64,000 nucleotides of DNA from an uncultured delta proteobacterium (GTDB lineage Bacteria; Desulfobacterota; WTBG01; CAIYCZ01; CAIRTM01): positions 214,546-278,545 of the forward strand of contig CAWDSQ010000007.1 in NCBI GenBank assembly GCA_963804955.1, given 5' to 3'. Shown here piece after piece: positions 1,157 to 56,515 of this stretch. The notes beneath the pieces were generated by a model. The model had not been told where the DNA came from, searched no databases, and saw only the letters and a program-made list of their open reading frames with translations. Every line of letters starts with the position of its first letter. Position 1 is the stretch's first letter. A program made the position numbers and the translations under genes.

Positions 1157-2005
1157 TCAAGGTTGAGCGATACGCTGTCCGGAACTCCAGCAAAAAAGCG
1201 CTATCGATACCGCAGCGGCAGCATTGAGCGATTCAACCGCGCCGGTCATGGGAATTGCCACGGCCTGATGCCGCAGCACATCGGGCAGGCCCTGCCCTTC
1301 CATGCCGGGAAGCAGCAGAAAGCGTTCGGGAAAAGCACATTCGCGTATCGACGCGCCCTGCATATCAAGGGCGACGATATGCCGGGCCATATCCGGCAGC
1401 TGCACCACCCCGGCAAGCGACGGTCCGCGGAAAAATGACAGCCTGAACACCGCGCCGCCCGATGCGCGGATGCTTTTCGGGTGAAACGGACTGGCTGCTT
1501 CTTTGAGCAGCACCACCTGCCGCACCCCGAACGCCGCTGCCGAGCGCGCCGCAGCACCCACATTGGCCGGGTCCTGAAACGGTAGGGCCAGAACGCAGCC
1601 GGGTTCGGTCAGCCGGCAATCCCATTCCGGGATGGATGGCGCAAGCATCTCAAGCAGGGGTCCGTTCGTCCTGAACATATCAAGCTCGTTGAAGAGCGCC
1701 TTCTTGAGTACAAGCAGCTTTCCCTCCCGGCTGAACTGCTGCACAACATCGCCCATGCCGCTCTCCTCAAAGCCGTCAAAGACAATCAGCGCGCAGCATT
1801 CCTGCGGCCGCTCCAGGGCAAGCTCCCGCACCAGCTTCGTGCCGGACACGAGCGTGCGCTCCTGCTTCTTCAGGCCGCGGCCATCGGTCAATTTGCACAG
1901 GGCCTTGAAGGTCCTGTTGTCGGGCGATGTGATGATAAGGGGGGCGTGGATTTTTTCGATCATGACTGCTACCGGCTGCTTCGTTCTTAGTACAGAGCCC
2001 CACAA
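1157..2005 (-). CDS. TrmH/SpoU family RNA 2'-O-methyltransferase
   Basis: 282 aa ORF; C-terminal SpoU motifs (…MTGAVESLNAAAAVSIALF…). Confidence 0.8.
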   Translation of the reverse strand: MWGSVLRTKQPVAVMIEKIHAPLIITSPDNRTFKALCKLTDGRGLKKQERTLVSGTKLVRELALERPQECCALIVFDGFEESGMGDVVQQFSREGKLLVLKKALFNELDMFRTNGPLLEMLAPSIPEWDCRLTEPGCVLALPFQDPANVGAAARSAAAFGVRQVVLLKEAASPFHPKSIRASGGAVFRLSFFRGPSLAGVVQLPDMARHIVALDMQGASIRECAFPERFLLLPGMEGQGLPDVLRHQAVAIPMTGAVESLNAAAAVSIALFCWSSGQRIAQP

Positions 2006-2206
2006 AAAAGGGGTGAAAAATTCCCCTTTAGCAAAGGGGGATTAACTAGGCTTATTTATCGTATGAAATTATATGCCCTCTTATTTGAGAGGCGCTGTAC
2101 TTATAATTGCACAGCTAACCTATAAAACAACAGGCCAAATTTTACAATGTGAAACACGTCGCCCCGCACATGCTCACTTGACAGTCTGCCGGACTTAGGC
2201 TAAAAG

Positions 2207-2220
2207 TATAACATATGTAC
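2207..2220 (+). promoter_or_regulatory. candidate operator palindrome (tataACATATGTac) about 30 bp upstream of lexA start; also CTGT-N12-ACAG at 2095-2114
   Basis: Perfect 8-bp palindrome ACATATGT resembling a GAAC-N4-GTTC type SOS box core; position relative to lexA. Confidence 0.3.
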
Positions 2221-2250
2221 AATCAAATTACATGACAGAGGTCACTACCC

Positions 2251-2867
2251 ATGGAACAGCTGACCGCAAAGCAGGCGCGGGTGCTTGATTTCATAAAAGG
2301 CCACCTGCAGCATACCGGCTATCCGCCCACGGTTCGTGAAATAGCCGACAGGCTCGGCCTTGCAGGCCCCAACAGCGCAAAAAAATTTCTCGATATCCTC
2401 GAACGCAAGGGATGCATCCGGCGGCAGCCGGGCTGCTCGCGTGCCATTGAAATTATGGGATCCTGCGGGCCGCAGCCATTCGCAGCCTGCCCGTAGTGGG
2501 CGCCATACGGGCAGGCGAACCGGTGCTGGCCTTTGAAAACATCGAGGAGCATGTGGCAGTGGACCCGTCTTTTGCCCGTGGCGAAGGGCTCTTCTTCCTT
2601 CGCGTGAAGGGCGACAGCATGATCGATGCTCATGTCATGGACGGCGACCTTGCCCTCATCCGGCCCCAGCCGGAAGTCGCCTCCGGCGACATTGCCGCCG
2701 TGCTGCTCGGCGATGAGGCGACGCTGAAATATTTTTTTAAAGAAAAAACAGCTATACGCCTGCAGCCTGCCAACCCTGCCTATGAGCCGATTGTGATTAA
2801 GCAGAAAGATGGCGCGCAGGTGCGCATCATCGGCAAGGTTGTTGGCGTCATGAGGAAAATGGAGTAG
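2251..2867 (+). CDS. lexA: LexA repressor, split into two frames (2251..2496 and 2496..2867) by an apparent 1-nt indel near 2456-2470
   Basis: N-terminal wHTH (…YPPTVREIADRLGL…) and C-terminal S24 peptidase domain (…LPVVGAIRAGEP…FLLRVKGDSMIDAHVMDGDLALI…); the two ORFs are contiguous in adjacent frames. Confidence 0.85.
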
Positions 2868-3098
2868 CATGGATTTTAGATTGAGGATATTGGATTTCAG
2901 ACTCTGGGCTTGGTCTGGGCTTGGGGTCGAATCTTTAACGTGACATTTCTTCGAAAAGATAAGGTAACAGGCTTAGTTCTGCTGCCTCACAAATCGAGCT
3001 TACCGGTTGAGGTATAGTTGTTCAAATATTCAGAAAAAACAGAATTAACGGGCAAAAAAAAATGAAGCGAATTCTACAGATCAGACTTTTTAAAAATA

Positions 3099-3128
3099 TT
3101 GACATCTTTGCAAAGGAATACTATATAG
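3099..3128 (+). promoter_or_regulatory. sigma70-like promoter (TTGACA-17bp-TATATA) upstream of Abi_2 gene
   Basis: ttgacatctttgcaaaggaatacTATATAg in AT-rich tract 2870-3200. Confidence 0.45.
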
Positions 3129-3200
3129 AAGTCAGCACACCCGCCGCGCCTCTGCCTAGCATGCGAAATTCGGTGGGTTTTTCTTTTTCTGGGGGGCTTT

Positions 3201-4100
3201 ATGGAATATTGTAAGCCCCCGCTTTCCTTTGAGGCACAGGCAGAGCTTCTCCTCTCACGGGGCCTTCAGGCAGATAAAAACGCTTTAATTGCTCGCTTGC
3301 AAGCGGTTAATTATTACCGGCTTAGCGCCTATCTTTATCCCTTTCGTAAGAACTCAAGCGATACATTCCAAAAAAATACTACTCTTGATCTTGTCTGGAA
3401 ACACTACACCTTCGACCGTCAATTACGAATCCTCGCAATGGATGCCATTGAGCGTATCGAAGTTGCGGTGAGGACTCAGCTTGTCTACCATTTTGCGCAT
3501 CGACATGGCGCGTTTGATTATTTAAAGCCAACCAACTTCCCGAAGCTAAGCCAAGACCGATTTAACCGCTGGCTTGTCGACATGAAAGATGAAATCAAGC
3601 GCAGCCGGGAGACATTTGCAGAGCACTTTAGTCAAAAATATGGCGATCATCATGAACTACCGCCTCTTTGGATGCTTTGTGAAGTCATGAGCTTCGGGAA
3701 AATGCTGACCCTTTTTAACGGCGTTGACGATGCCATGAGACGCTTGATTGCCCGCGAATATGGGCTTGAGGATAAGGTGCTTCAATCCTGGCTTGGTTCG
3801 CTCAACGTCATTAGAAACATCTGCGCTCATCATGGACGTCTCTGGAATCGCGAACTCGGATTTAAGCCTTTCATACCGCGCAGGCAGAAATATCCGCAGT
3901 GGCATGCTCCTGTAGAAATTGCCAATCACCGCATCTTTGCCATAATGACTATCCTTAAGTTTATGCTTAGGAAAGTTGCACCTACAAGCAAATGGGAGTG
4001 CCGGTTTAGCGACCTTCTCAGCCGTTATCCTGAAATACCGCTTGCGTCGATGGGGTTCCCGGGAAACTGGGAAAGTTGCGCAATTTGGAGCAACCAATAA
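3201..4100 (+). CDS. Abi_2 family (AbiD/AbiF-like) abortive infection protein
   Basis: 299 aa; motifs YYRLSAY, LWMLCEVMSFG, RNICAHHGRLWNR typical of Abi_2/AbiD-F; AT-richer than flanks. Confidence 0.75.
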   Translation: MEYCKPPLSFEAQAELLLSRGLQADKNALIARLQAVNYYRLSAYLYPFRKNSSDTFQKNTTLDLVWKHYTFDRQLRILAMDAIERIEVAVRTQLVYHFAHRHGAFDYLKPTNFPKLSQDRFNRWLVDMKDEIKRSRETFAEHFSQKYGDHHELPPLWMLCEVMSFGKMLTLFNGVDDAMRRLIAREYGLEDKVLQSWLGSLNVIRNICAHHGRLWNRELGFKPFIPRRQKYPQWHAPVEIANHRIFAIMTILKFMLRKVAPTSKWECRFSDLLSRYPEIPLASMGFPGNWESCAIWSNQ

Positions 4101-4153
4101 AATCAACAACGCGAAAAAAATACGCAAACAAGTTCCATCAGACAATTTAAACT

Positions 4154-5384
4154 ATGCCGAGCACTATCATCCATCTTGACATGAACGCCTTCTTCGCCTC
4201 GGTGGAGCAGCAGTGCTAACCCCGCCCTGCGGGGCAAGCCTATTGCTGTCGTCGGCCGGGGCAGCCGCACCGTTGTCACCACGGCCTCCTATGAGGCCCG
4301 GGCTTTCGGCGTCAAGACGGGCATGAACAAATTTGAGGCGCAGCGGCAGTGCCCGCACATCATTTTCGTGGAAGGCAATAACCGGCGCTATGCCGAAACA
4401 TGCGCCGGGTTCACGGCCATGTGCCGCAGGTTTACCCCGCTGGTGGAGGTTTTTTCCATTGATGAAGTATTCATGGATGTGACCGGCTCCTTAAAGATTT
4501 TCTCCTCGGCCCGGGATATTATCGCACGTATTAAGCAGCAGATAAAAAGCCGGTACGGCCTTACCTGCTCGGCAGGCATCGCCCCCAATAAGCTGCTTGC
4601 CAAACTTGCCAGCGACCGGGAAAAGCCCGACGGACTGGTGGACATACCGCCTGACACCGTGCTGCCCTTTCTTGAAGGCCTGCCGGTCCAGGACCTGTGC
4701 GGCATCGGGAGCAAAACGCAGGCAAAGCTGGCGCTTCTCGGCATAACAACCTGCGGCCAGCTCGGCAGGGCTGACGCGAATCTGCTCTCCCGCCATTTCG
4801 GTGTGATGGGAGACATGCTGCGCCACATGGGAAGGGGAGAAGACGACAGCCCGGTGGTGCCTTTGGAAGAGACGCCCGACCCCAAGTCAATCGGCCACAG
4901 CCATACTCTTCCGAGCGATATAACCCGGCGCGAGCTGCTTGATTTCCATCTGCTGCGGCTCTCTGAAATGGTTGGCCGCCGGGCGCGCGATGGCGGCTTT
5001 GCCGGCCGCACCGTATGCCTTACTATCCGCTATAAGGATTTCACCACCTTCACCCGCAGAGTTTCTGTTTCGCATCCTATGTGCGAAACCCCGGATATAT
5101 TTGCCGCGGCAAAAGGCATTCTTGACGGCATCAAGCTTCAGCAGGCCGTGCGGCTGGTGGGCGTAGCGCTTTCACAGCTGGGAGAGATGCCGCGCCAGCT
5201 GCCCCTTTTTGCAAAGCAAACCAAAAGCCGCAAGCTTACCCGTGCGATGGATGAAATCAATAACCGCTTTGGTGATTTTACGCTGACCTGGGGCAGCATG
5301 CTTGAGCATGATGATTCTGAAGGCCACGGGGGCGTGATATCGCCTGCCTGGCGGCCTGAAGGCGTGCGAAAAATCACGTTTTGA
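4154..5384 (+). CDS. dinB: Y-family DNA polymerase IV (DinB); N-terminal 21 codons in another frame (frameshift near 4212-4220)
   Basis: MPSTIIHLDMNAFFASVEQQ(C*) then NPALRGKPIAVVG… in the +1 frame; rest of ORF 4323..5384 has Y-family palm/fingers/little-finger signatures. Confidence 0.85.
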
Positions 5385-5534
5385 CCGCACTAAAAAAATT
5401 CACTGAAGAGTCAGGAAGCGTGCAGAGGAAAAATGTATTTTTTTCTCAAGAAACTGTTGCCAAGTGCCGACTATAGGATTAATAAATAATGCACGGAAGT
5501 CGTTAACCATTTTCTCTAGAAAGGAAGGTATGTC

Positions 5535-5639
5535 ATGTCAAAAGGAATGGATGCCAAAAAAACAGACAAAAAGAAGTCGGAAAAAAGCCTGAAAGAAAAA
5601 CGAGCCGAAAAGAAACAGAAAAAGGCCAACAAGGCCTGA
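5535..5639 (+). CDS. 34-aa lysine-rich small basic protein (MSKGMDAKKTDKKKSEKSLKEKRAEKKQKKANKA)
   Basis: RBS aaggaagg 6 nt upstream of ATG; strong intrinsic terminator immediately downstream; below ORF-track size cutoff. Confidence 0.4.
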   Translation: MSKGMDAKKTDKKKSEKSLKEKRAEKKQKKANKA

Positions 5640-5651
5640 AAAAATACGAAA

Positions 5652-5690
5652 CAGGGAGGAGACGCACAGGCGCTCCTCCCTGTTTTTTTT
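5652..5690 (+). terminator. intrinsic terminator (cagggaggag…ctcctccctg + T8)
   Basis: 10-bp GC-rich stem and U-run. Confidence 0.65.
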
Positions 5691-5725
5691 CACCCGCGCG
5701 CCCTGTTGCGGAGGGAGAACCAACA

Positions 5726-6163
5726 ATGGACACCGCACAGCTCAGTCAGGTTGAGTACGTCGGCTTCTGGCCCCGTGTGCTTGCCTCGATCATCGACAGC
5801 GTTCTGCTTATGCTGGTGCTGGCGCCGGTTGCCGGCATGCTGACGGGCGGCGGCACCGGCAGTGTGCTCATCAATGTCATCCTGCCCGCCGTGGCAGTCA
5901 TTGTTTTCTGGATATACAAATCGGCAACACCGGGCAAAATGATCATCAAGGCTGAAATTGTCGACGCAAAGACCTTCGGCAAGCCCACCACCGGCCAGTT
6001 TATCGGCCGGTATCTGGGGTATTATGTTTCAACCATTCCGCTTTTGCTGGGGCTTATCTGGGTGGCCTTCGATGAGCGGAAGCAGGGCTGGCATGACAAG
6101 CTTGCCGGCACCGTCGTGATCAGCACGAAAGACCGGGGGCAGCAGCAGGCTCCACAGGCATAA
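5726..6163 (+). CDS. RDD family membrane protein
   Basis: 145 aa, TM helices and R…D…D signature (…GRYLGYY…FDERKQGWHDKLAGTVV…). Confidence 0.7.
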   Translation: MDTAQLSQVEYVGFWPRVLASIIDSVLLMLVLAPVAGMLTGGGTGSVLINVILPAVAVIVFWIYKSATPGKMIIKAEIVDAKTFGKPTTGQFIGRYLGYYVSTIPLLLGLIWVAFDERKQGWHDKLAGTVVISTKDRGQQQAPQA

Positions 6164-6295
6164 AAAAACGACGGGGCATGACCTTGTCGTTTCATCTCAA
6201 CATGTGTAATGGGTGAACCCCATCATTGATGCAAATGGATATATTGCGGGTTTTACCAACAATATTTGTGAACTAAAATTTCCTTCTCCCCTTGA

Positions 6296-6640: not shown

Positions 6641-6893
6641 TTCGCTGACAGAGGGGTTTTCGTTCAGATACTATATAAGATGATATATTCTTTATAGAGC
6701 ATGGAAGTTTTGGCCTTCCGGATAAAATCGTTCATTGCCCTCAGGCAGCAAAGATTTTTCACTTGCAAAGATGCTTTGATAGTTGTTTAATGCAAAAATG
6801 GGATGAGGGGCCTTGCGGATGAATCCTGCTGGGAAGGATACCCCCGCACGCCGCATACTGCAATTTTCAAAAAATCCTCGCATGTGAGGGATA

Positions 6894-7163
6894 GTGAAAA
6901 AAATTGACCTATTGGGAAGACTGGAAAATTTCTTCTTATATAGTTTTTATCCCCTATTGTTTCTTGCCCTTTCCGGTATATTGATAATAGTTGATTCCCT
7001 TTTCTTTCAGGACTTTCCTGTACTGCTGCGAGCTGTATTGTTCTGTGCCGGTGTATTTTCCGGCGCGGCTCTCGGGTATAGTGCAGCAACAGTGATATTT
7101 GACCTTTTTTTCCCCCGGTACTGCAGGGTTATGGAAGAAATCGTCAATGAAAAACAAGAATAG
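6894..7163 (+). CDS. small hydrophobic hypothetical protein
   Basis: 89 aa ORF with 2 predicted TM segments; weak. Confidence 0.3.
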   Translation: MKKIDLLGRLENFFLYSFYPLLFLALSGILIIVDSLFFQDFPVLLRAVLFCAGVFSGAALGYSAATVIFDLFFPRYCRVMEEIVNEKQE

Positions 7164-7445
7164 GCCGACAGGCCGCTTGACCCTCTTGTTCCCGCCCCCT
7201 TTTTTTTCGGCCTTTGATTCCTGAACAGTGCCCTTGAGTGCATTCTTAAAAATAGCATAGCCACAGGCGCACCTGTGCAGAGGGCTGCAAAAAAGTTCTC
7301 TCGTGGGTCGTCACCTTCAATAGTAGCAGTTGCTGGTACCCTCACTCCACCCGCAGGAAGGGCACTGTTGGGCCTAAAAGATAGCCTTTGGGGCTATTGA
7401 TTAAACCGATATTTCTATATATCCTATACGTCTCAGGAAGGTATT

Positions 7446-7856
7446 TTGAAAAAAACAGGTCCGATTAATAGAGCCAATCAATTTCTCAAACGGTTCGTGC
7501 AGATACTATATGCGGATTATCAGGAGAGAAGAAGGCCGAATATGGCGCCACTCGTTGCAGCTAAACAAACTGTAAAAGAAATCGCAATAGCCATTTTGAC
7601 AGCCATTGCCGCTTGTATCAACAGGTGTTGCAGGGGGAAGCAGCAGTCCCTGGACAGAGCAAAGATGGGACAGGTCGTTTTTGACCTGGAGGACCGTTTG
7701 CGCAAGGTGGCAATCGAGCTTATGCGCGTCAATGGTGTATCGCCATCGAGGATTGAAGAACTGAAGGCAGAGAAGAATAAGCTGCTTGCGGAGATTGATG
7801 CCGTGACCCGTGCCGCCGGGCTGAGAAGCCGCATCTTGTCTTCCGGTTTTGAATGA
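7446..7856 (+). CDS. hypothetical protein
   Basis: 136 aa ORF. Confidence 0.35.
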   Translation: MKKTGPINRANQFLKRFVQILYADYQERRRPNMAPLVAAKQTVKEIAIAILTAIAACINRCCRGKQQSLDRAKMGQVVFDLEDRLRKVAIELMRVNGVSPSRIEELKAEKNKLLAEIDAVTRAAGLRSRILSSGFE

Positions 7857-17340: not shown

Positions 17341-17836
17341 CTAATTTTCAAAGATGGCCGCGATATTTTTCTCTACATGATCTTCTGTTGTTTTCTGGGC
17401 TATTGAAAGCTCTTTGACGAGCAGTCCTTTTGCGATATCCATCATACGGCGTTCGCCAAAAGAAAGGTCTTTGCCGATTTTCAGAAGAAACAGGTCACGC
17501 AGCACAGCCGCCACCTCATAGACCGATCCTGTTTTAATGCGATCCATATAATCGCGGTATCTGCGGTTCCAGGTCTGAGCATCCGGAGGCGCTGATTTTT
17601 TATCTTTTAGTATTTTATAAACTTTTGTTGCATCTTTATTGCTGATAACGCTTCTCAATGCCAACCTGCTCGACATTATCAGTCGGCACCATAATGGTCA
17701 TACCATTGCCCAGTATGCGCATTATGTAAAATTTTTGTTTTTTATCGTGTCCAACGGACATATCCTTTTCCTCAACAGCCTCTATAACACCTACGCCGTG
17801 GGTAGGATAGACCGCCATATCGCCTTTTTTAAACAT
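17341..17836 (-). CDS. CarD/CdnL family transcriptional regulator, split in two frames (17636..17914 N-part, 17341..17676 C-part) by an indel near 17640-17676
   Basis: N-terminal MFKKGDMAVYPTHGVGVIEAVEE (RNAP-interacting domain) and C-terminal CdnL-like domain in adjacent frames. Confidence 0.7.
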
Positions 17837-18238
17837 AGAGCAATCCTCCCAATAAAATAAAATATATAATAAAAAAGTTAAGAACTTTGGCTGTTCCGTG
17901 GCCCCCCACGCCAAGTGCAGGATTTGTTATACATAATACAGTACGAAACGGTTTTTTTTCGTGCGGAACAGAAAATAGAATCAACCATGAATCTTATATC
18001 AAAAATTTAAAAAAAAGACAATGAAAAATATCAACTGCTAGGGGAGGGCTTAGGGCTTGATTGAAAAAAAATAAAGCAAATTAAGGACTTTGAATGGGGT
18101 TCTCCGGAGAGGCTTAAAAATGTTTTTATGTGCATGCCGGTAAACGACGGTGCATCTATGGATACTTCGCCGGTATGCTGTGCATGGTAACCCGGAGCCG
18201 GCTTTATGCTGTCTGGCTACAGACAAGGCCCCGAACTT

Positions 18239-38460: not shown

Positions 38461-38696
38461 AATCTGCCATTTTTTGCTTGTATGATTCCGGCGGGTTGGC
38501 GCCCGCCCTACGTTCTACCTTCTGTGTTTTGCATTATGTGGTGGATTCGCTGCGCTTAATCCACCCTACGGCTTCTGTACCCTGATTCCTGATCCCCGAC
38601 CCCGGACCCTGCTTTTATTAATCCTTCACCTTTACGGTTGACATATGATAGTATAGATTATATTTCAGTTACAATCATTGTATCGGGAGAATTTTT

Positions 38697-39182
38697 ATGA
38701 ACGAAATAGCTGAACTGCTGCAGAAAGACGCACGGCTCACAGCCGAAGACATCGCCTCCATGCTCAACAAGAGCGTCGAGGATGTGCGCGATAAGATTCG
38801 CCAGATGGAGGATGACGGCACCATTATTAAGTACAGCGCCGTCATCAATGAAGAGAAGCTGCCGAAGCAGAAGGACAAGGTCGTTGCTTTTATTGAAATA
38901 CAGGTGCAGCCCGAGCGCGAAAAGGGCTTTGACGCCATTGCCGAGCGCATTTACCAGTTTCCGCAGGTTACGTCGCTGTATCTTATGTCGGGCCGCTATG
39001 ACCTGCTGGTCGTGGTGGAGGGAGACAACCTGAAGGATGTGGCTTTTTTCGTGTCCGACAAGCTTTCAACCCTGGATAATGTCAAGAGCACGGCCACCCA
39101 TTTTCTACTGAAGAAGTACAAGGAAAACGGCACCATGCTGTTCAAACAAAACAAGCTGGAGCGGCTCAATGTTGCGCTTTAA
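38697..39182 (+). CDS. Lrp/AsnC family transcriptional regulator
   Basis: 161 aa HTH + RAM domain. Confidence 0.85.
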   Translation: MNEIAELLQKDARLTAEDIASMLNKSVEDVRDKIRQMEDDGTIIKYSAVINEEKLPKQKDKVVAFIEIQVQPEREKGFDAIAERIYQFPQVTSLYLMSGRYDLLVVVEGDNLKDVAFFVSDKLSTLDNVKSTATHFLLKKYKENGTMLFKQNKLERLNVAL

Positions 39183-40311
39183 CAACCGCATCGAGCAGAT
39201 GCCGCCATCGGGCATCCGCAAATTTTTTGATCTCGTGATCGACGCCAAGGATATTATCTCCCTTGGCGTGGGCGAGCCGGATTTTGTCACGCCCTGGCAT
39301 GTGCGCGAGCGGGTGTTCTATTCCCTGGAGCAGGGCCGCACGAGCTATACCTCGAACTGGGGCCTCATGGAGCTGCGCAAGGAAACGGCAAAATATCTCA
39401 AAGACCGCTTTGCCGTGACATATGACGCCAACGAAATTATGATTACCGTGGGCGTGAGCGAAGCTGTGGATATCGCCCTGCGCACGATATTAAACGAGGG
39501 CGATGAGGTAATTCTGCCCGAGCCCACCTATGTGTGCTACCGGCCCCTTGCCGAGCTTGCGGGCGCAAAGGCCGTGGCGGTGAGCAACCCGAGCTTCAAG
39601 ATCACGGCAGATGATATTGAAAAAGCCGTAACGCCAAAAAGCAAGGTGATAATACTGTCCTATCCCTCAAATCCAACGGGCTACACCATCGACCGGGCCG
39701 AAATCGAAAAGATAGCCGAGATTGCCCGGAAGCATGACCTGTGGATTATTTCAGACGAAATTTATGGCGAGCTCACCTATGAAAAAGAGCACTTCTCCAT
39801 AGCGGCGGTACCGGGCATGAAGGACCGCGTTATCCTCATGAACGGATTCTCCAAGGCCTTTGCCATGACAGGCTGGCGCCTTGGCTATATTGCAGCGTCA
39901 AACGATTTTCTTGAGCAGGCCGTAAAAATCCATCAGTATGCCGCTCTGTGCGCTCCCATCATGGCCCAGTACGCAGCCATTGAATCTCTGCAGCGGGGCA
40001 TGCCTGAAATGGAAGAGATGAAAAAAAGCTACTGGCGGCGGCGCAATTATATGTTCGAAGCGCTCAATAAAATAGGCATGACGGTGAACCGGCCCGAAGG
40101 CGCGTTCTATATCTTTCCTTCCATCGAGTGCTCAAAGCTCTCCTCGGAGGATTTCGCCCTGGGGCTGCTGGAAAAGCAGCGCGTGGCTGTTATTCCCGGT
40201 GATGTATTCGGCCTTGGCGGCGAGGGCCGCGTTCGCATCTGCTATGCCATCGACTTTGAGCTTTTGAAGGAGTCTGTGGCGAGGATGGAAAAATTTATTA
40301 AATCTTTATAG
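39169..40311 (+). CDS. class I/II PLP-dependent aminotransferase
   Basis: 380 aa; …SKAFAMTGWRLGY… Lys-containing motif. Confidence 0.85.
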   Translation: MLRFNNRIEQMPPSGIRKFFDLVIDAKDIISLGVGEPDFVTPWHVRERVFYSLEQGRTSYTSNWGLMELRKETAKYLKDRFAVTYDANEIMITVGVSEAVDIALRTILNEGDEVILPEPTYVCYRPLAELAGAKAVAVSNPSFKITADDIEKAVTPKSKVIILSYPSNPTGYTIDRAEIEKIAEIARKHDLWIISDEIYGELTYEKEHFSIAAVPGMKDRVILMNGFSKAFAMTGWRLGYIAASNDFLEQAVKIHQYAALCAPIMAQYAAIESLQRGMPEMEEMKKSYWRRRNYMFEALNKIGMTVNRPEGAFYIFPSIECSKLSSEDFALGLLEKQRVAVIPGDVFGLGGEGRVRICYAIDFELLKESVARMEKFIKSL

Positions 40312-40313
40312 AA

Positions 40314-40350
40314 AAATGAAGCGCCCCTGCAGGGGCGTTTTTTTATTGAG
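40314..40350 (+). terminator. intrinsic terminator (gcgcccctgcaggggcgc + T8)
   Basis: seen in sequence. Confidence 0.6.
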
Positions 40351-40362
40351 ACGGGAGTATGT

Positions 40363-40920
40363 ATGAAGTGCCTGTACTGCGCCGAGGAGATCAAAGACGA
40401 GGCGAAGCTGTGCCGGTTCTGCGGAGCGCGCCTGTCTGACGGCCAGTGGCAGCCTCCTTCCGCACCGGCGGGAGCCGCAGGCCGGCGCAGCTTCACCATG
40501 CTCACCACGGGCTGGCTGCTGGCGCTGTCCGGTGCGTGGATGCTGGTCATGTGCAACTCCCCGGTGCCGCTGTTCGGCTCGGTGCGCGGCGGTATCGTCG
40601 CTGTGCTGTACAACGGTGTTTTCGGCGTGCTTATGCTGGCCATGGGATATGCTCTGGCCGGCCGCAAGCCATGGGCTCTTACGGCAACGGCTGCCGCCAC
40701 TGCCGCCTATACGCTGGACAAGGTGCTTTTTATTTTCGATACTCCCGCGCGGCTCGCATCACTGAAAGATGGTTCGCAGCTGCTTAATTCCCTGGGCCCG
40801 GGAATGGACTCAATGGTTGATCAGGTGGCGGTGGTGATGGCGGCTTCGTTCCTGGCGGGCTGGTGGGGGCTTGTTATCTATATTTATCTCAAGCGCGGCT
40901 ATTTCCGGCAGGATGCATAG
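40363..40920 (+). CDS. zinc-ribbon (CxxC…CxxC) membrane protein
   Basis: MKCLYCAEEIKDEAKLCRFCGA… + 4 TM. Confidence 0.5.
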   Translation: MKCLYCAEEIKDEAKLCRFCGARLSDGQWQPPSAPAGAAGRRSFTMLTTGWLLALSGAWMLVMCNSPVPLFGSVRGGIVAVLYNGVFGVLMLAMGYALAGRKPWALTATAAATAAYTLDKVLFIFDTPARLASLKDGSQLLNSLGPGMDSMVDQVAVVMAASFLAGWWGLVIYIYLKRGYFRQDA

Positions 40921-40983
40921 CTCACATCGGGTGGGTGAAACTCAATATTTAGGAATTAAGTAAAAAAAGTTCCTCGCCCCCGG

Positions 40984-41160
40984 AGCCTGTGTCGCAATTG
41001 ATTTATTTGGTTATCTCCAATGCTGAACCTGTATGTGGTCGTTAATTTCATCGCAAAATTTTGTCATTTCGAAGGAGCGGAGCGACTGAGAAATCTTAAG
41101 CACATGCAAAGATCTCTCCCGCAGTCTGCCCTGAGCGAAGTCGAAGGGGTCGAGACATGA
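40984..41160. repeat. rearranged/inverted member of the MITE-like repeat family
   Basis: contains left-TIR-like gcctgtgtcgcaatt and reverse-complement blocks (ttgtcatttcgaa, gagaaatcttaag, aaagatctctccc, gtcgaaggggtcgagacatga). Confidence 0.45.
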
Positions 41161-48913: not shown

Positions 48914-49207
48914 CTATGCGCCAACTGCGGCACGCAGTTCTCCAACTTTTATTTTCTTCTGCCCGGCATGCCAGAGGTCGAGTTTTGACTGCATATACAA
49001 CCAGCTTTCCGGCGTGGTGCCTGTTGCAAGGGCGATTTTTACGGCCATGTCCGGTGTCACAGGACCCCTGCCGTTTAAAATTGCAGACAGTGTTTTACGC
49101 GACGTGCGCAAACGTTTTGCGGCTTCCGTTATCGTAAGTCCCAGGGGGACCAAAACATCCTCCCGTAAAACTTCTCCGGGATGTGTGGGTTTGCGTTTGT
49201 TAATCAT
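48914..49207 (-). CDS. higA: HigA antitoxin (HTH-XRE)
   Basis: …HPGEVLREDVL…LGLTITEAAKRLRTSRKTLSAILNGR…. Confidence 0.8.
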   Translation of the reverse strand: MINKRKPTHPGEVLREDVLVPLGLTITEAAKRLRTSRKTLSAILNGRGPVTPDMAVKIALATGTTPESWLYMQSKLDLWHAGQKKIKVGELRAAVGA

Positions 49208-49229
49208 GATGTGTGCTCCTTGAAAATAG

Positions 49230-49508
49230 TCAGTGATAATCCCTGTAATCGACGATCACAGCATCTGCCCCTTCAAATTGAAAAGTAACCCGCCAGTTGC
49301 CGTTTACCCGGACCGACCAGGAGTCCTTCTCTTTGCCCGGCAGCCGGTGCAGTTTAAAGCCGGGCAGATTCATGTCCTCGGGGCATGCTGATGCGTCCAG
49401 GCGGTCAAGTATGCGGGCCAGCCTGGGGGCATGGTCCGGCATTATTTTACTGCAGTCATCATGGTGGAAAAACTTTTCCAGCCCTTTATGCCTGAATGAT
49501 TTAATCAT
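49230..49508 (-). CDS. higB: HigB toxin (RelE/ParE superfamily, 'plasmid maintenance system killer')
   Basis: MIKSFRHKGLEKFF…; toxin-first order with higA. Confidence 0.8.
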   Translation of the reverse strand: MIKSFRHKGLEKFFHHDDCSKIMPDHAPRLARILDRLDASACPEDMNLPGFKLHRLPGKEKDSWSVRVNGNWRVTFQFEGADAVIVDYRDYH

Positions 49509-49751
49509 GTCTCCATATATAACATGTAACCTAATGCGTTACAAGCAGTTTTAGCAATTGCCAGTGTATGCTGCTGTTGGCATGCGGATCAGCATGAAAA
49601 CTGTGCATAGCGCGGATAGTAAAAACAAAGCGTGCTGACACCTGTTCTTGTTTTTTCGTTCTATGGTTTTCCCGATGGATGTTCCCGGTTGTTTTTTAGA
49701 CCCACTAAAATACAGGTTGCATAATATATAAAAACTTATATAATTGAAAAT

Positions 49752-50327
49752 ATGAATACTGTCGTGAAAGCACTTAAGTTCATTGGGTCGAGTCTGGACG
49801 ATCTACGGAATTTCCCGGATGAAGCCCGGCGGGCTGCCGGATTTGAGTTTCATGCGGTTCAAAGCGGTTTTGATCCAAACGACTGGAAGCCCATGCAGGC
49901 CATCGGCCCCGGCGTAAAAGAGATTCGTATTCATGTGCTGGGCGAGTGGCGCGTTATCTATGTAGCTTAGCCAACAACCACCCGCATAGAGCCTGTGTCG
50001 CAATTTACTTTGCTGTCATCTCGACCGAAGGGAGAGATCTTTGTAGTAAGTAAAATCAAGGGGCTTAAGATTTCTCACCGCCTGCGGCGGATTCGAAATG
50101 ACATTAATAAATCAATTGTGACACAGCCTCATAGCGGGGGGGGGATTTCGCTAAAGCGAAATCAAAAAACACATAGTGTTTATGTTGCCTTTTTCAGAAA
50201 CGCATGTTTCTGAAATCAGTTCAGCGACGCAGTTTATGTGCTGCACGCATTCAAGAAAAAAAGTCAAAAAACGAGCCGCCAGGATATCGAACTGGCGCGT
50301 CAAAGGTACAACCGCATTGGAGGTTAA
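49752..50327 (+). pseudogene. Gp49-like (PF05973, HigB-family) toxin gene interrupted by a 140-bp MITE; N-part 49752..49970, C-terminal end (…AVYVLHAFKKKSQKTSRQDIELARQRYNRIGG*) resumes at ~50220
   Basis: N-terminal ORF ends in-frame inside MITE; C-terminal conserved block found in-frame downstream of MITE, stop overlaps antitoxin start region. Confidence 0.7.
49990..50129. mobile_element. MITE-like element copy A (140 bp; TIR agcctgtgtcgcaat / attgtgacacagcct; TSD CATAG)
   Basis: CATAG at 49985-49989 and 50130-50134; 96% identical to copy B. Confidence 0.75.
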
Positions 50328-50331
50328 AGTA

Positions 50332-50616
50332 ATGAACGATGACATTATTAAATCTTCCGGCAGCGTTTTTGCTGATCTCGGTTTTCCACCGGATGAAGCC
50401 GCTATTCTTCAGATGCGTGCCGACCTTATGGCTGATCTGCGCAAACTCATCAAAGCGAAAAAATTAACGCAGGCCAAAGCGGCAACAATTTTCGGGGTGA
50501 CGCAGTCCAGGGTATCAGATCTCATGCGCGGCAAATGGGAGAGATTCAGTCTTGAAATGCTCATTACGCTTGCAACAAAGGCGGGCATGCATGTCAGCTT
50601 GAAAACAGCGGCATAA
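50332..50616 (+). CDS. HTH-XRE antitoxin partner of the Gp49-like toxin
   Basis: …LTQAKAATIFGVTQSRVSDLMRGK…. Confidence 0.7.
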   Translation: MNDDIIKSSGSVFADLGFPPDEAAILQMRADLMADLRKLIKAKKLTQAKAATIFGVTQSRVSDLMRGKWERFSLEMLITLATKAGMHVSLKTAA

Positions 50617-50654
50617 CGCTGGCTTCAAAACAAAGGGCGCTGACCCCTGTTCTT

Positions 50655-50900
50655 GTTTTTGCTGAGCGGAGAGGGAATTTATTAGATCAAAAAGCCATGA
50701 TGCAGGCAATAGATTCCCTGAATCAACGCTATGGCCGCAACACGGTTCAGTTTGCATCATCGGGCATAGATAAGCGCTGGAAAATGCTGCAGTCGCAAAA
50801 ATCGCCGTGCTTTACCACATGACGGGGCGAGATACCGGCTGTGAAGGCATGAGACAGACAGGCGGTGCAGGCCAGATAGTGATTTATGTATGAACGCCCC
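50655..50900 (+). repeat. UmuC-like 3'-end remnant, copy 3 (…AMMQAIDSLNQRYGRNTVQFASSGIDKRWKMLQSQKSPCFTT*RGEIPAVKA*)
   Basis: best-preserved copy; W codon replaced by TGA. Confidence 0.55.
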
Positions 50901-50995
50901 GCAGTCCTACTCAAACAATTCAACTAATTCAACAACGTTAAGTTCCTAAAAAATTTTCTTGAAAAGCATTAAATACAACCGTCCCCTTTTAGATG
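50880..50995 (+). repeat. 110-bp direct repeat, copy 1 (contains 21-bp core aattcaactaattcaacaacg)
   Basis: approx 90% identical to 55878..55990; core also at 54697-54717. Confidence 0.65.
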
Positions 50996-51057
50996 TTTAC
51001 AGCCAATTTCTGCAACCTGGGGGGGGGAGGGCGTTTGTGTACTTTGTAGGATGGCCC

Positions 51058-52229
51058 CTAAGTGCCGTCATTCTCAACAAGTGAATAGCTTGTGCTTCTG
51101 CCTCCTGCGGGATCCTTCTTCAGCAGGTTCTGTTTCACAAGGTCATCAATATCGCGACCGGCAGTATCCTGAGAACATTTTGTGATTTTTGCCCATTTTG
51201 ACGACGTGAGTTTTCCTTCGAATCCATCAATCAATAGATTGAGCATATGTCGTTGGCGATCGTTCAACGGCTGCTGCGCAAGTTTTTTCCAAAGAGTTGC
51301 TTTGCGGATGACATTTGCCAATATGGTCTCGGCGCCATCGAACGCTCGATTGAGGCAGCTCAGGAACCAATCGAGATATTCCGTGATATCAAGATCGCCT
51401 TTCTGCATTTCTTCCAGACGAGTCGTAGTATTTTCCCTGTTCTGCCTTTATCTGGGCAGAGATGCTGTAAAAGCGCTGAGCGCTGCGCTCTGAGCGAGCC
51501 AGCATCATGTCAGCGAGCGCGCGACCGATGCGACCGTTTCCATCGTCGAAGGGATGAATGGTCTCAAACCAAAGATGCGCTGTGGCGGCTTTAAGAATGG
51601 GATCGACATTGGGTTGCTCTGTATTAAACCACTTTATGAACGCACCCATTTCTTTATCGATACGCGTTGCGGCAGGCGCTTCGTAGTGAACATGTTCGCG
51701 TCCATAGGGGCCGGAAACAACCTGCATGGGCCCGGATTCAGCCGTTCGCCATTTGCCGACAGTAATCTTCAAAAGGCCGCTGTATCCTGTCGGGAACAAT
51801 GCTGCGTGCCAACCGAAGAGCCTCTCTTTTGTAATCGGTTTATCGTAGTTCTGTGTTGCATCGATGATCATTTGAACAACACCATCGACATTTCTGTCTG
51901 ACGGTGTCAGTGCGCCGATATCGACGCCAAGCCGCCGCGCGAGAGAAGAACGAACCTGATCCCGATTGAGCTGCTGCCCTTCAATTTCGCTGGATTTTAC
52001 GACTTCCTCCGTCAGGGTGTCGCAAAACGGCTTCGTCGCGCAGCTTGATGCCGAAAGCCTCTATGCGCCCAAAGAGCTGCCCTTGCCGATAACGTACAGC
52101 AGCGAGTTTTTGTGCAAGATGGTCGTTATCCCAACGAAAATGGGGCCAATCGGCTCTTTGATATATGTAGGTAGTCATAATCTCCGCACCTTTCGCGTAG
52201 ATTATAGCACTTTTTCTCCGCATAAGCAA
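51058..52229 (-). pseudogene. Fic/DOC family protein (DUF4172 N-domain + Fic HPFxxGNGR + C-terminal wHTH) split into three ORFs (51981..52229, 51389..51871, 51058..51408)
   Basis: …YIYQRADWPHFRWDNDHLA… (DUF4172), …HPFDDGNGRIGRA… Fic motif; overlapping frames. Confidence 0.75.
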
Positions 52230-52517
52230 TCATATTCGCCGCATATATTGCGGAGAATAAAGCGGCTAATCTCCGCAATTGATTGATCCTTGCTTTGGGC
52301 TGGGCAGACTAGAGATGAGGGTTGTTCAATACAAAGTTTGCCGCAGGAAGCACTTCCTGGGTGGGGGGATTTAGTAAGTGGTTGCCTGCTCTAACTCCCG
52401 CACGTTGTGCAAAATATGTATTCAGGAGCTGCGGAAAAGCTAAGTCAACAACGTCCCCCTAGTTAGACCTTTCTGCTCTATGTTAGTAGATGATAAAACC
52501 CTTTTTCAAATACCCCT

Positions 52518-53516
52518 TTACAGCCGGTTGCGACGTCTGGCTGAATGCCGATCCATGCGCGAATGTTCGTCATCCTGCTTCCTGCCTGCGGGCTTTGCAA
52601 AAGCTGCAAGGTGCAGTATGTGCCCCTGGTGCTCAAAGGCAAACCCGATCACCGAGTCCGATTCAAGCCGTATGTCTTCACCCTCAGATACGGATTTGCG
52701 ATGCTCTGCTGTTGCATCTGCCATGCCGGCGATAAACTGCCTTGCTGCGTCACCATGAGATCCTTCAAGCTTCAGATCAGGATCATACCAGTCCGTGGCA
52801 TCAAGGGCGTAGCTCTTCACAAGCTTTGCAAACACCTTCCCGAACGTGTCGGGTCCGGCAAAGCTGTCAAGGCCTGCAACTTTCCCGTTTATCAGAAATA
52901 CAGCACCGGCCTGATTTTCGGCCCTGGTAAAGTTTTGCAGGTAGTCTTCAAGGGAAATTCTGTCCTTTTCGTAAATTTCTGACATGGCCATGCTACCGGA
53001 TACGGCCTTCCTGCGCCGCGCCTTCTTGTCTATGGAATTCCATATCTCTCCCTGGTCAGAACAATAGGAGGCATTAATTTTGAGCGAGTGGTTTACGTGA
53101 ACGGCCTTCTCCGCCCTGATATTCGGACAGAGCAGGCGCTCATGGCTGAAAAACTTGCCGGAGGCGTAGGACCACCGGCCCTGTTCCACGCAGCTCACCG
53201 GGATTATCACCTTTGACATGGCAGCGATGAGAATGGTGGCGTTGACGATACGGTTCTGCTTGGCCCCTACCAGCTCTTCGCCGTCCAGGATGAGCACCTG
53301 CTTGCTTGCCTTATTGATCACCTGCAGCTCAGGCACTGAGCCTCCCGTGCTCACCTCTCCAACTTCGATGAGCCCGCCCTGCAGCGCCTCGTCAAGAAGC
53401 AGGTAGTCGGCCTGTTCCGTACCACTGGTCAAAAGCGGCACCATGCTCAAATTTTTATAGGCTTGAGCCGGCCCCGTGGTGATGGTTGTGATATAGGTTT
53501 TAAGACTTTCGTTCAT
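52518..53516 (-). CDS. hypothetical protein (332 aa), first gene of an operon divergent from the WYL regulator
   Basis: no recognisable motif by eye; intact long ORF. Confidence 0.5.
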   Translation of the reverse strand: MNESLKTYITTITTGPAQAYKNLSMVPLLTSGTEQADYLLLDEALQGGLIEVGEVSTGGSVPELQVINKASKQVLILDGEELVGAKQNRIVNATILIAAMSKVIIPVSCVEQGRWSYASGKFFSHERLLCPNIRAEKAVHVNHSLKINASYCSDQGEIWNSIDKKARRRKAVSGSMAMSEIYEKDRISLEDYLQNFTRAENQAGAVFLINGKVAGLDSFAGPDTFGKVFAKLVKSYALDATDWYDPDLKLEGSHGDAARQFIAGMADATAEHRKSVSEGEDIRLESDSVIGFAFEHQGHILHLAAFAKPAGRKQDDEHSRMDRHSARRRNRL

Positions 53517-53674
53517 GGCCTCTCCTTTGACTTTTCCGGTTAATCTTACCTTTAAGAATAGCAGGGCACTGTGTCAGGGAAGGTCAAAACGAATTAAAAA
53601 ATATTGTTATTTATTGTAAAAAATTGATATATTTTAATTTCATTGTGGTCTTTTTTTACGTCAGGGAGGATTTT

Positions 53675-54652
53675 ATGCCACGAGGAGATCAGCTGGCGCG
53701 TCAGTGGAAAATTATTCAGACCATAGTCTCGTCAAAAAAAGGCAAAACGGCAACCGAGCTGGCAACCGAACTCGAAGCAAACCCGCGAACCGTCTACCGC
53801 GACCTTCAGGCATTGCAGACAGCGGGGTTTCCGATATACACGGAAAGAGTGGGCGATAAAAATTGCTGGACACTGCTTGATGCCATTAAAAACCAGATCC
53901 CGGTCCCGTTCGCATTTACCGAGCTCATGGCTCTGTATTTTTCAACCGATATGCTCAAAGCCCTTCACAATACAATTTTTTATGAAAACCTGGACTCACT
54001 GGCTAAAAAAATAAAAACCATCCTGCCTCCCGAGTCGCACAGATTCCTTGAAAACGCGCGCAAGACTTTTTCTGTTCAGAAGAAGCACTATAAGGACTAC
54101 GGCGGCTTCAAAGAGATAATCAACAAGGCTTCAGATGCCGCGCTGAAGCAGAAATGCGTCACACTTGTCTACTGCTCCATGCCGGAGAAAAAAGAGACCC
54201 GGCGCACCGTAGATCCCTACCGCATCTGGTTTTTCAATGAGACCTTTTACCTGATCGGCTACTGCCACCTGCGCAAGGAGCTCCGCTCTTTTGTGCTCGA
54301 CCGGGTCAAATCCCTCACCGTTACTGATGAGGAGTTTGTCATCCCTGAAGATTTTGATTTTGATGCCCTGATGAAGGGCAGCTTCGGCGTTATCACCGGC
54401 CCGACTGAATCCGTGCGGATACAATTTGAGAAAGAAGTGGCCGGCTATATTGAAGAAAAGGTGTGGCACAGCAGCCAGCGCATTAACCGGGCCTCTGACG
54501 GGGCAATTATCTTTGAGGCCGACGTTGCAATAAATGAAGAATTTAAAAACTGGATTTTAAACTGGGGATCAAACGCGATGGTTCTGGCGCCCGCATCGCT
54601 TGTTGCGGAGATTCAGGCAGAGATCGCCAAAATGGCTAACAGGTATAGCTGA
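53675..54652 (+). CDS. WYL-domain transcriptional regulator (wHTH-WYL-WCX; BrxR/CapW/PafBC-like)
   Basis: N-terminal wHTH (…ATELATELEANPRTVYRDLQALQTAGFPI…), WYL core (…RTVDPYRIWFFNETFYLIGYCHLRKELRSFVLDRV…), C-terminal WCX. Confidence 0.8.
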   Translation: MPRGDQLARQWKIIQTIVSSKKGKTATELATELEANPRTVYRDLQALQTAGFPIYTERVGDKNCWTLLDAIKNQIPVPFAFTELMALYFSTDMLKALHNTIFYENLDSLAKKIKTILPPESHRFLENARKTFSVQKKHYKDYGGFKEIINKASDAALKQKCVTLVYCSMPEKKETRRTVDPYRIWFFNETFYLIGYCHLRKELRSFVLDRVKSLTVTDEEFVIPEDFDFDALMKGSFGVITGPTESVRIQFEKEVAGYIEEKVWHSSQRINRASDGAIIFEADVAINEEFKNWILNWGSNAMVLAPASLVAEIQAEIAKMANRYS

Positions 54653-54819
54653 TTTATGGATGGATGCCCCCAGGATATTTCCTGCAGCACAGATAATTCA
54701 ACTAATTCAACAACGCCCTTTATGCTCCCAATATGAAGCTAATAAAGAGGGGGATGCAGGTAACCCCTATTCCAAGTGGCCACGACTAGGGGGTTTTGGG
54801 TGGCCGCCGGGGTTTATTT

Positions 54820-55230
54820 TTAAATAATACTTAAAATCGGCTCAAGACGCGGGTCAATGGCTTTCAAAAGTTTGGAAAATTTATCCAGGGATGGCTTTAC
54901 TTTACCCTGTTCATATCTGCTGTAGGCAGCCGGTGAATTTGAACCAAGATTTTTCGCAACATCACGTACGCTCAAGTGAAGGCTGCTGCGTTGCTGTTTG
55001 AGCGCCAGGGCCATAAGCAGGGTGTCATTGCTGGAGCCCACCATGAAAGTATCTGCCGCCCCCTCTGTAACGGAAACAGTAAAGCCTTTTTCATCAATGA
55101 TTGATTCAATGGCATCCTTTGCCATAAAATAAGCATCTTTTCGGCTCTTTCCCTGAGTATAAATCTTCAGCAAGGGTATTTCTACTGCCCACCATTTACC
55201 TGACCGGACAAGTTTGCCTTCTATTTTCAT
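54820..55230 (-). CDS. hicB: HicB antitoxin (RNase-H-like N-domain + HTH-XRE)
   Basis: 136 aa; overlaps hicA by 4 nt. Confidence 0.85.
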   Translation of the reverse strand: MKIEGKLVRSGKWWAVEIPLLKIYTQGKSRKDAYFMAKDAIESIIDEKGFTVSVTEGAADTFMVGSSNDTLLMALALKQQRSSLHLSVRDVAKNLGSNSPAAYSRYEQGKVKPSLDKFSKLLKAIDPRLEPILSII

Positions 55231-55427
55231 GTGCTCTCCTTTCTCTTGTTACCCGGATTGGCCAGCGCTGTTTTTACGATGGCCTCAGCGGTATATTCAT
55301 TAATCTCTGTGTGCCGGGGCACCGGAATTTTCTGCTCTCCGTTTGTCCATTTCTCATGGCTGCCGCCCTCGCCGTATTTCCACCAGCCAAGTTCTTGCAA
55401 CCGCTTGATGAGAACTTTCTTTTTCAT
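55227..55427 (-). CDS. hicA: HicA mRNA-interferase toxin
   Basis: MKKKVLIKRLQELGWW…GGSHEKWTNG…. Confidence 0.85.
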   Translation of the reverse strand: MKKKVLIKRLQELGWWKYGEGGSHEKWTNGEQKIPVPRHTEINEYTAEAIVKTALANPGNKRKEST

Positions 55428-55597
55428 ATTTTATATTGTATACATATTTATATACATTGCAAGTGTAAATAAACCGCTTCATTTTATTAGTGGCTGTTGT
55501 CCCGGATAAATTCCGTGAAGTGTCTGTCAAACAGGGGTAAGTTCAGCTGTCCACGATTATTGCCTGAAAAACAAAACACCCTTTAATCCAGGATACA

Positions 55598-55826
55598 GTT
55601 TAAGAAAGAAGTGGCCGGCTATATTGAAGAAAAGGTGTGGCACAGCAGCCAGCGCATAACCCGGGCACCTGACGGGTCAATTATCTTTGAGGCCGACGTT
55701 GCAATAAATGAAGAATTTAAAAACTGGATTTTAAACTGGGGATCAAACGCGATGGTTCTTGCGCCCGCATCGCTTGTCTCGGAGATTCAGGCTGAGATCG
55801 CCAGAATGGCTGGAAGGTACAGCTGA
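55598..55826 (+). pseudogene. duplicated 3' fragment (last ~72 codons) of the WYL regulator gene, about 93% identical to 54433-54652
   Basis: MAGYIEEKVWHSSQRITRAPDGSIIFEADVAINEEFKNWILNWGSNAMVLAPASLVSEIQAEIARMAGRYS vs WYL C-terminus. Confidence 0.75.
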
Positions 55827-55877
55827 GGAGATTTGCTAGAAAACGAAACGGACTGAGCGATTTCAATTTGCTACAAT

Positions 55878-55990
55878 ATGAACGCCTCGCAGACCTACTC
55901 AAGCAATTCAACTAATTCAACAACGTTATGCTCCCTAAAAAATTTTCTTGAAAAGGATTAAATAGAACCGTCCCCTTTTACTTAAAGGAA
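55878..55990 (+). repeat. 110-bp direct repeat, copy 2
   Basis: tatgaacgcctcgcagacctactcaagcaattcaactaattcaacaacgtta…ccgtccccttttac. Confidence 0.65.
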
Positions 55991-56060
55991 CTATTGGCGA
56001 CAAATCCTTCGGCTTCCTGAGCGGCATCAAGCATGTGTTGAAGTCTTATTCTGTCATCAG
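55980..56060 (-). pseudogene. truncated HEPN (DUF86/HepT-like) toxin remnant (27 codons: [29 protein letters not shown])
   Basis: ATGA overlap with MNT stop; HepT-like N-terminus then premature stop at the repeat boundary. Confidence 0.45.
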
Positions 56061-56362
56061 GCCTCATACTGCACCTCGGCCGTACTCAGAATCTCTTTGC
56101 GAAAGTACCGGCTTAATTCCTGCGGGGTGCGAAGGTCGGCCTTGTTGCCGAGCAAATCGCTGAGTTCATTTTCCATATGGCAAAGAGAAAAAAAACCCGG
56201 CAGCATTTCATCGTAAAATTCAACCAGCAGATCAATATCGCTGTCCGGCCTCATCGCCCCTTTCAGGGCAGAGCCGAAAAGAGATAACCTTTTAATGCCA
56301 TTGCGCCGGCAGAATTCAATGAGCCGGTCACGCGAAATTCGCTGATCGATTATGTTCGACAT
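56057..56362 (-). CDS. MNT-type nucleotidyltransferase (MntA-like antitoxin of HEPN/MNT module)
   Basis: …[22 protein letters not shown]…. Confidence 0.8.
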
Positions 56363-56515
56363 ACATGCCTCGCCATTAATTTAGAGGGGTCCGGGTATCC
56401 ACCCCTGGCTAATCAGGGACTCCCTGTTTGCTGTTTATAGACCTCTGCTTTTATTTCACCGCAAAAATTCCGTTGTTGACACAGTGCACAAACTCCCCCT
56501 TTTTGCATGTGTATT

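Follow-up and report, generated by a model that had tools for sequence, protein, structure and literature searches.

In the genome of an uncultured delta proteobacterium, the DNA between lexA and dinB most probably (probability ∼0.8) holds a complete, self-contained AbiF-type module, a system of the type III-like toxin-antitoxin or abortive infection class. The module lies at positions 3099–4100 of a 64,000-nucleotide (nt) stretch of contig CAWDSQ010000007.1, which was analysed as a whole and is referred to below as the window. Its promoter, RNA and open reading frame (ORF) are conserved as one unit, the RNA shows covariation, and the protein is homologous to that of a solved AbiF-RNA complex. 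By the same homology the module would be expected to bind its RNA, to be toxic and to defend against phage. The initial annotation of this DNA had described an abortive infection (Abi) gene with its own strong promoter, and the RNA was the component it lacked; with the RNA added, the Abi gene becomes a two-part RNA-protein AbiF module. Most of the sequence features given in the initial annotation were confirmed. The kind of system is known (AbiF with an abiF RNA); its host and its site are new, and the chief import of the analysis is the corrected annotation. The parts of the module are:

3099–3127, + strand: sigma-70-type promoter of the module, TTGACA at 3099–3104, a 17-nt spacer and TATATA at 3122–3127, read from the sequence
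3134–3189, + strand: small RNA with the abiF motif, predicted antitoxin AbiFr (Rfam RF03085, covariation)
3191–3196, + strand: ribosome-binding site (RBS) of abiF, GGGGGG
3201–4100, + strand: abiF/abiD-type gene of 299 amino acids (aa), an Abi_2 protein and predicted HEPN ribonuclease (RNase) toxin (Pfam, PADLOC and PDB homology)

The Abi gene that the initial annotation placed between lexA and dinB is well supported. Its product matches Abi_2 (PF07751) over profile positions 3–184 of 184, with an E value of 3.9e-58 and 197.2 bits against a cut-off of 25.6, and AbiD is the best PADLOC model (E 2.4e-72, 242 bits). Residues 4–296 align with residues 8–299 of the 'Abi family protein' PbAbiF in PDB entry 8VZ6_A (E 3.8e-52). 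The protein carries an HEPN-type R-x4-H motif, R205-N-I-C-A-H210-H211 (RNxCAHH), aligned to RNSCCHH of 8VZ6, and 31 homologues all have R205, N206, C208, A209, H210 and H211. The reading frame is intact and matches P0001 exactly. AbiF homologues were found on 446 plasmids; phage and plasmid homologues are 30–41% identical to the window protein, and the AbiF of C. difficile phage phiC2/CD2301 shares 30% identity over 97% of the length.

Conservation extends beyond the gene. DNA similarity to other AbiF loci runs from 3107–3134 to ∼4060–4070, which marks the limits of the module, and similarity to the nearest Abi loci begins 67–90 nt before the ATG rather than at it. The TTGACA-17-TATATA promoter is a conserved part of this unit. 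Among 70 distinct homologous upstream regions, 44 (63%) contain a promoter scoring at least 9/12, compared to 1.2% of shuffled controls, and in 41 of these 44 the -10 element ends exactly 11 nt before the first RNA stem. This fixed distance indicates that promoter, RNA and ORF travel together. A consensus promoter scanner omits the site at 3099–3127: it requires the -10 element to end in T, and here the final base is A.

The 5′ end of the RNA, judged from promoter geometry, would be A3134. The stretch contains ACCCGCCG-CGC-CUCU-GCCUAGC-AU-GCG-AAAUU-CGGUGGGU, followed by UUUUUCUUUUU, with three stems: P1 (3139–3146/3171–3178), P2 (3147–3149/3163–3165) and P3 (3154–3155/3159–3160). The outer stem and the U-run (UUUUUCUUUUU) form a predicted intrinsic terminator of a ∼55-nt RNA. 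Eighty loci encoding AbiF homologues of 41–74% identity were fetched, and of the 76 whose upstream sequence reaches 120 nt or more, 74 have the same RNA element; in the other two the protein match starts inside the gene. The element ends 11–52 nt before the start codon, except for a distance of 78 nt in locus L024, where a second copy intervenes. The two abiF-like hairpins of L024 stand in tandem, one ∼110 nt and the other ∼30 nt before the start of the Abi gene.

The case for a structured RNA was built on an alignment of 67 distinct copies. Over these, P1 (8 base pairs) is paired at 98.9% and P2 (3 base pairs) at 98.5%, and both partners have changed in 10 pairs. Covariation scores 0.358, compared to 0.160 for shuffled alignments, none of which (0 of 500) reaches the observed value. 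Overall pairing amounts to 93% and falls to 33–39% when the partners are slid. An unpaired GCCUCU and A-rich joints are conserved as well. The window copy aligns column for column with eight others (L057, L058, L061, L062, L067, L068, L069 and L074) that pass the Rfam gathering score, and the window RNA is thus probably a divergent member of RF03085. Our own model R1, which has the window sequence in its seed, gives 63.2 bits for the window RNA.

Several observations weigh against this interpretation. The RF03085 match at 3140–3178 covers the full model, but its 19.6 bits are below the gathering score of 37; it emerged only when 136 nt (3080–3215) were scanned, and a wider scan of 1900–5800 (3.9 kb) at E≤1 returned no match. 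The hairpin is no more stable than shuffled sequence (z = 0.65). Thermodynamic folding is thus unsupportive, and the case for structure rests on covariation and position. There is one RNA copy, compared to the two motifs of the C. difficile RNA RCd22 and to ToxI, which consists of tandem repeats; a search of 2868–3200 for such repeats found none, and R1 has a single match in the window. Finally, several genes are split in this assembly, so errors inside the module are possible, while the abiF ORF itself is intact.

Several known systems offer a comparison. PbAbiF-AbiFr (8VZ6) is the closest. Its HEPN RNase is described as binding one RNA per monomer, with the RNA blocking the active site, and the AbiF family is proposed there as the ancestor of Cas13 (PMC12737573). 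The window module shares with it a full-length homologous protein, the HEPN RNxxxH motif and a single structured RNA directly upstream on the same strand; it differs in its divergent protein, in an RNA below the Rfam threshold and in its host, an uncultured Thermodesulfobacteriota-type metagenome-assembled genome, and it is known here from sequence. The RCd22-abiFCd pair of phi027, according to its published description, has the same layout: a promoter, then an abiF-motif RNA that ends at a Rho-independent terminator, with read-through into abiF (PMC12373285). RCd22 itself is reported to carry two abiF motifs in ∼100–130 nt, 168 nt from the ATG and within a prophage lysis module (PMC12373285), whereas the window has a single motif within ∼55 nt that lies 11 nt from the RBS, in a chromosomal SOS operon's spacer. 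The tandem hairpins of L024 resemble the two-motif RCd22 layout. ToxIN and AbiQ-antiQ are alike in that the RNA antitoxin gene precedes the toxin gene with a terminator between them, and in abortive infection (here by homology); in those systems a non-HEPN endoribonuclease processes the tandem repeats that make up ToxI and antiQ, while the window has a single hairpin motif and an HEPN protein. The lactococcal AbiD, AbiD1 and AbiF belong to the same Abi_2 family, in line with AbiD as best PADLOC model, but they are plasmid-borne, come from Firmicutes and are distantly related in sequence.

From these parallels a mechanism can be proposed. The promoter at 3099–3127 would start transcription at ∼3134, and the first ∼55 nt would fold into the abiF motif, with the outer stem and U-run terminating most transcripts as the small RNA. 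Transcripts that read through would serve as abiF mRNA, and their product would be an HEPN-domain RNase that, by homology, the small RNA binds and silences. Phage shut-off of host transcription, or degradation of the RNA, would then free the RNase and stop the infected cell.

Alternatively, the RNA could act only in cis, as a leader or attenuator setting the level of abiF transcription, with AbiF controlled by other means and no protein-binding antitoxin. The outer stem and U-run do make a terminator shortly before the ORF in nearly all homologues, and RCd22 is reported to repress abiF transcriptionally as well (PMC12373285). However, RCd22 is also described as acting in trans and binding AbiFCd directly (PMC12373285), RNA is part of the solved PbAbiF complex (8VZ6; PMC12737573), and the conserved unpaired GCCUCU and A-rich joints exceed what a terminator needs. 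A purely cis-acting role thus appears improbable, and the two-part RNA-protein module is preferred.

The surroundings of the module are arranged as follows:

2178–2221, + strand: lexA promoter region, with a TTGACA -35 at 2178–2183 and ATAACATATGTACA at 2208–2221, a candidate LexA operator
2251–2867, + strand: lexA, with LexA_DNA_bind in 2251–2496 and Peptidase_S24 in 2496–2867 (Pfam) and a 1-nt deletion between 2463 and 2464
2890–3098, no strand: window-specific spacer, similar to nothing in any fetched locus; the replaced segment has its left junction at 2889/2890
4101–4153, + strand: spacer of 53 nt that separates the abiF stop from the dinB start, holding the 9-mer tcaacaacg; the right junction is at ∼4152–4160
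4154–5384, + strand: dinB, a Y-family polymerase in a GeoPolY-like position, with IMS, IMS_HHH and IMS_C domains and an extra T at 4217

As the initial annotation noted, the intergenic DNA is AT-rich, with a GC content of 0.40–0.49 over 2850–4200 against 0.55–0.64 in lexA and dinB. Two further ORFs in this region, one of 50 aa at 3062–3214 and an antisense ORF at 3657–4145, were dismissed as lacking family matches or overlapping real features.

Relatives of the locus were recovered with DinB and LexA probes (L094, a JGI contig, L095, L096 and L007). All five keep the order spoU (− strand), lexA, dinB and RDD at 82–95% nucleotide identity, and the content of the lexA-dinB spacer differs in each:

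L094 (the closest, 95% in dinB): DUF559 and orf84, both frameshifted
JGI contig: DUF559 and an ORF of 83 aa
L095: orf81 alone, 31 nt before dinB
L096: DUF559, orf84 and a Phd/PIN toxin-antitoxin pair; the contig ends before dinB
L007: DUF559, an orphan abiF RNA with promoter, orf143, a Y1_Tnp-like ORF and PRiA4_ORF3
L009 (a further locus): DUF2971 and DUF3800 upstream of dinB; the contig starts there, with lexA outside it

None of these five closest relatives has an Abi gene at the site, and no Abi remnant was found in L007–L011. Homology of the window to L094 stops at 2889, exactly where a REP-like (repetitive extragenic palindrome-like) hairpin of L094 begins, and resumes at the dinB start codon, at 4152 (L095 and L009) or 4161 (L094 and L007). 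With junctions at a hairpin start and at the start of dinB, the AbiF module replaced DUF559 and orf84, and was not inserted into a bare lexA-dinB junction. The proposal that the Abi gene was inserted between an SOS pair is therefore upheld in that the gene is foreign to the locus; what it replaced was DUF559 and a candidate imuB-C, and the pair had not been contiguous. The association with lexA and dinB reflects the landing site of the module, not a conserved functional link.

Cassettes in the relatives are flanked by nested REP-like hairpins, AAATCCCCC..CCCCCTTT-N4-AAAGGGGG..GGGGGATTT, and no REP-like hairpin occurs in window positions 2868–4160. Hairpins of the family AAATCCCCC..CCCCCTTTnnnnAAAGGGGG..GGGGGATTT are found in the window at 924, 2023, 21456 and 21514, in L007 at 1910, 2025 and 2420, in L094 at 6651 and 6783, in L095 at 6642 and in L096 at 6642–7320. 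The Y1_Tnp (IS200-like) match in the lexA-dinB spacer of L007 is weak.

A conserved ORF of 81–84 aa lies directly upstream of dinB in L095 (6812–7057), L096 (7377–7631) and L094 (∼7405–7650), and is also present in the JGI contig. It matches DUF6504 weakly (21.3–21.7 bits against a cut-off of 24.2), and its position makes it a candidate standalone imuB-C of a lexA-imuB-C-polY operon. For Geobacter sulfurreducens such an operon is reported as a single damage-induced transcript (Jara et al. 2003, cited in PMC6511836). The present locus is like it in that, within a deltaproteobacterial lineage, a same-strand Y-family polymerase comes after lexA, and relatives carry a small ORF before the polymerase; it differs in that the spacer of this clade has REP-like hairpins and swappable cargo, and that in the window the small ORF is replaced by AbiF. 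The full lexA-imuB-C-polY unit is not found in the window, which lacks the small ORF and, as assembled, has frame breaks in lexA and polY. With the swap the polymerase here lost its candidate imuB-C partner, and a terminator came to stand between the lexA promoter and dinB. More generally, the spacer of a conserved SOS mutagenesis operon is hypervariable and rich in REP-like hairpins, and toxin and defence cargo is traded there among close relatives. The copy in the window extends the AbiF family and its RNA to an uncultured lineage of the sulfate-reducer type, in which the Rfam model alone would miss the RNA.

In L007 the orphan abiF RNA lies at 2631–2677 (2584–2683 with its promoter), upstream of orf143 (2724–3155). 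The 100-nt region is 81% identical to that of the window, has one broken outer-stem pair and is accompanied by no Abi gene. A regular partnership of the RNA with orf143 was rejected; six other orf143 loci lack the RNA, and the L007 copy was accordingly treated as an orphan or relic. It is probably the relic of a lost AbiF module, and possibly a stand-alone antitoxin that provides immunity against incoming AbiF modules.

The initial annotation also raised the possibility that abiF is coupled to the SOS response through read-through from the LexA-controlled promoter; DNA damage or prophage induction would then raise abortive-infection capacity. The position of the genes is compatible with this idea: lexA, abiF and dinB all point the same way, the + strand shows no terminator-like site from the lexA stop to the abiF promoter or from abiF to dinB, and the lexA-imuB-C-polY genes of Geobacter are reported to form one damage-induced transcript (PMC6511836). 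The spacer, moreover, repeatedly holds cargo of the toxin or nuclease type (Phd/PIN, DUF559 and AbiF). A ATAACATATGTACA block stands just after the lexA -10 and is identical in the window, L007, L094, L095 and L096; the lexA promoter region as a whole hardly varies among the five relatives. This 14-mer occurs once per locus, upstream of lexA only, and never in the spacer or before dinB; it is a candidate LexA operator. With one such element per locus in the relatives, the spacer content may be transcribed with the operon.

Evidence beyond position points the other way. Across 86 other AbiF loci, 444 kb altogether, no LexA or DinB homologue lies within ∼4 kb, the closest AbiF relative (78% identity) sits between tsaD and rsmA, and the nearest relatives of this genome have no Abi gene at the site. 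Positions 2868–4160 contain no match to ATAACATATGTACA, to a degenerate half-site pattern or to any of seven published LexA-box classes, the operator of this clade not being defined experimentally; degenerate LexA-site patterns occur at chance frequency. Read-through would in addition have to cross the terminator of the abiF RNA, and since antitoxin RNA would rise along with toxin mRNA, no net activation is expected. We therefore judge SOS coupling quite improbable. Partial insulation of dinB from the lexA promoter by the abiF terminator is the more likely consequence of the swap. A promoter-like site at 3919–3946 (10/12 matches) was considered as a promoter of dinB and given no weight, because the number of promoter-like sites in the region equals the shuffled expectation.

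A broader version of SOS coupling would have the spacer take up swapped toxin, nuclease or defence genes (DUF559, Phd/PIN, AbiF and PRiA4_ORF3) that are driven by the LexA promoter and hence inducible by DNA damage, with the orphan RNA of L007 acting as immunity. We hold this to be very improbable.

Upstream of the lexA -35, the block CTATAAAACAACAGGCCAAATTTTACAATGTGAAACAC (window 2100–2160) is almost invariant in the five relatives, and TTACAATGTGA inside it is one mismatch from the Bdellovibrio-type LexA box. The block may be a second regulatory site, or part of a divergent spoU promoter.

The flanking genes, introduced as a classic SOS pair, do have the expected domains, but each is broken by a 1-nt indel as assembled. 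lexA is split into ORFs 2251–2496 and 2496–2867 and lacks a base that is present in L095 and L096; LexA of the relatives is intact (205–211 aa). In dinB, the extra T creates a TAA at 4217–4219 after 21 codons, and the Y-family polymerase (IMS) domains lie within 4323–5384, where the long dinB ORF restarts. L007, L008 and L009 are without that T, and the dinB orthologue of L007 is intact (410 aa). Similar damage is seen elsewhere in the window. carD (− strand) is split, with CarD_TRCF_RID in 17636–17926 and CarD_C in 17341–17697, overlapping ORFs in different frames, and fic (− strand) has its DUF4172 domain divided between 51981–52229 and 51389–52060. At least four genes are thus broken in 64 kb (lexA, dinB, carD and fic), and the related 'contig_'-named, long-read-style records L094 and L009 show similar splits; together these observations make assembly indels the likelier cause.

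Were the frame breaks real, the SOS operon would be truly decaying, with its candidate imuB-C lost and the locus serving mainly as a landing pad for the module. Both breaks are absent from the five relatives, the small ORF that directly precedes dinB there is missing here, and neither indel lies in a long homopolymer. Set against this are the splits in fic and in carD, a gene that is normally indispensable, the similar splits in the L094 and L009 contigs, and the conservation of the rest of lexA and dinB at 86–95% nucleotide identity with no further damage. True decay is therefore possible but rather unlikely, and the indels in lexA and dinB are likely assembly errors. Real frame breaks would make this an example of an SOS operon in decay that a defence module has taken over; with assembly errors the finding would be routine.

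On a larger scale, window positions 6259–40984 (∼34.7 kb) run in the opposite direction to the corresponding block of L094, L007, L009 and L010. There, an aminotransferase/AsnC pair comes directly after RDD; in the window this pair is located at 38562–40984 on the other strand. The inversion could be real or a mis-assembly.

A 9-mer, tcaacaacg, had been read as a hint of cassette-like acquisition, being shared with repeats of an island in the window. It was placed at 4108–4118; its location is 4103–4111, three bases after the abiF stop. Other copies occur at 50929, 52445, 54707 and 55917, with a reverse complement at 56471, and these five lie in repeats at 50.9–56.5 kb that have a longer common core, aattcaactaatTCAACAACG. 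Outside the 9-mer the copy at 4103 has nothing in common with them, and its flanks are unlike the island repeat. About 0.47 chance occurrences of the 9-mer are expected in the window, and the best local match of 4099–4126 to the island has an E value of 0.84. With a 9-mer at chance level, differing flanks and no REP-like hairpin between lexA and dinB, the motif was rejected as a mark of cassette acquisition.

The island itself (48914–57000) contains HigB/HigA (48914–49538), the split fic gene and direct repeats of 69–236 nt carrying TCAACAACG. At 50155–50822 it encodes an HTH_37 protein and an 88-aa DUF4113 fragment that resembles the 3′ end of an umuC-like gene.

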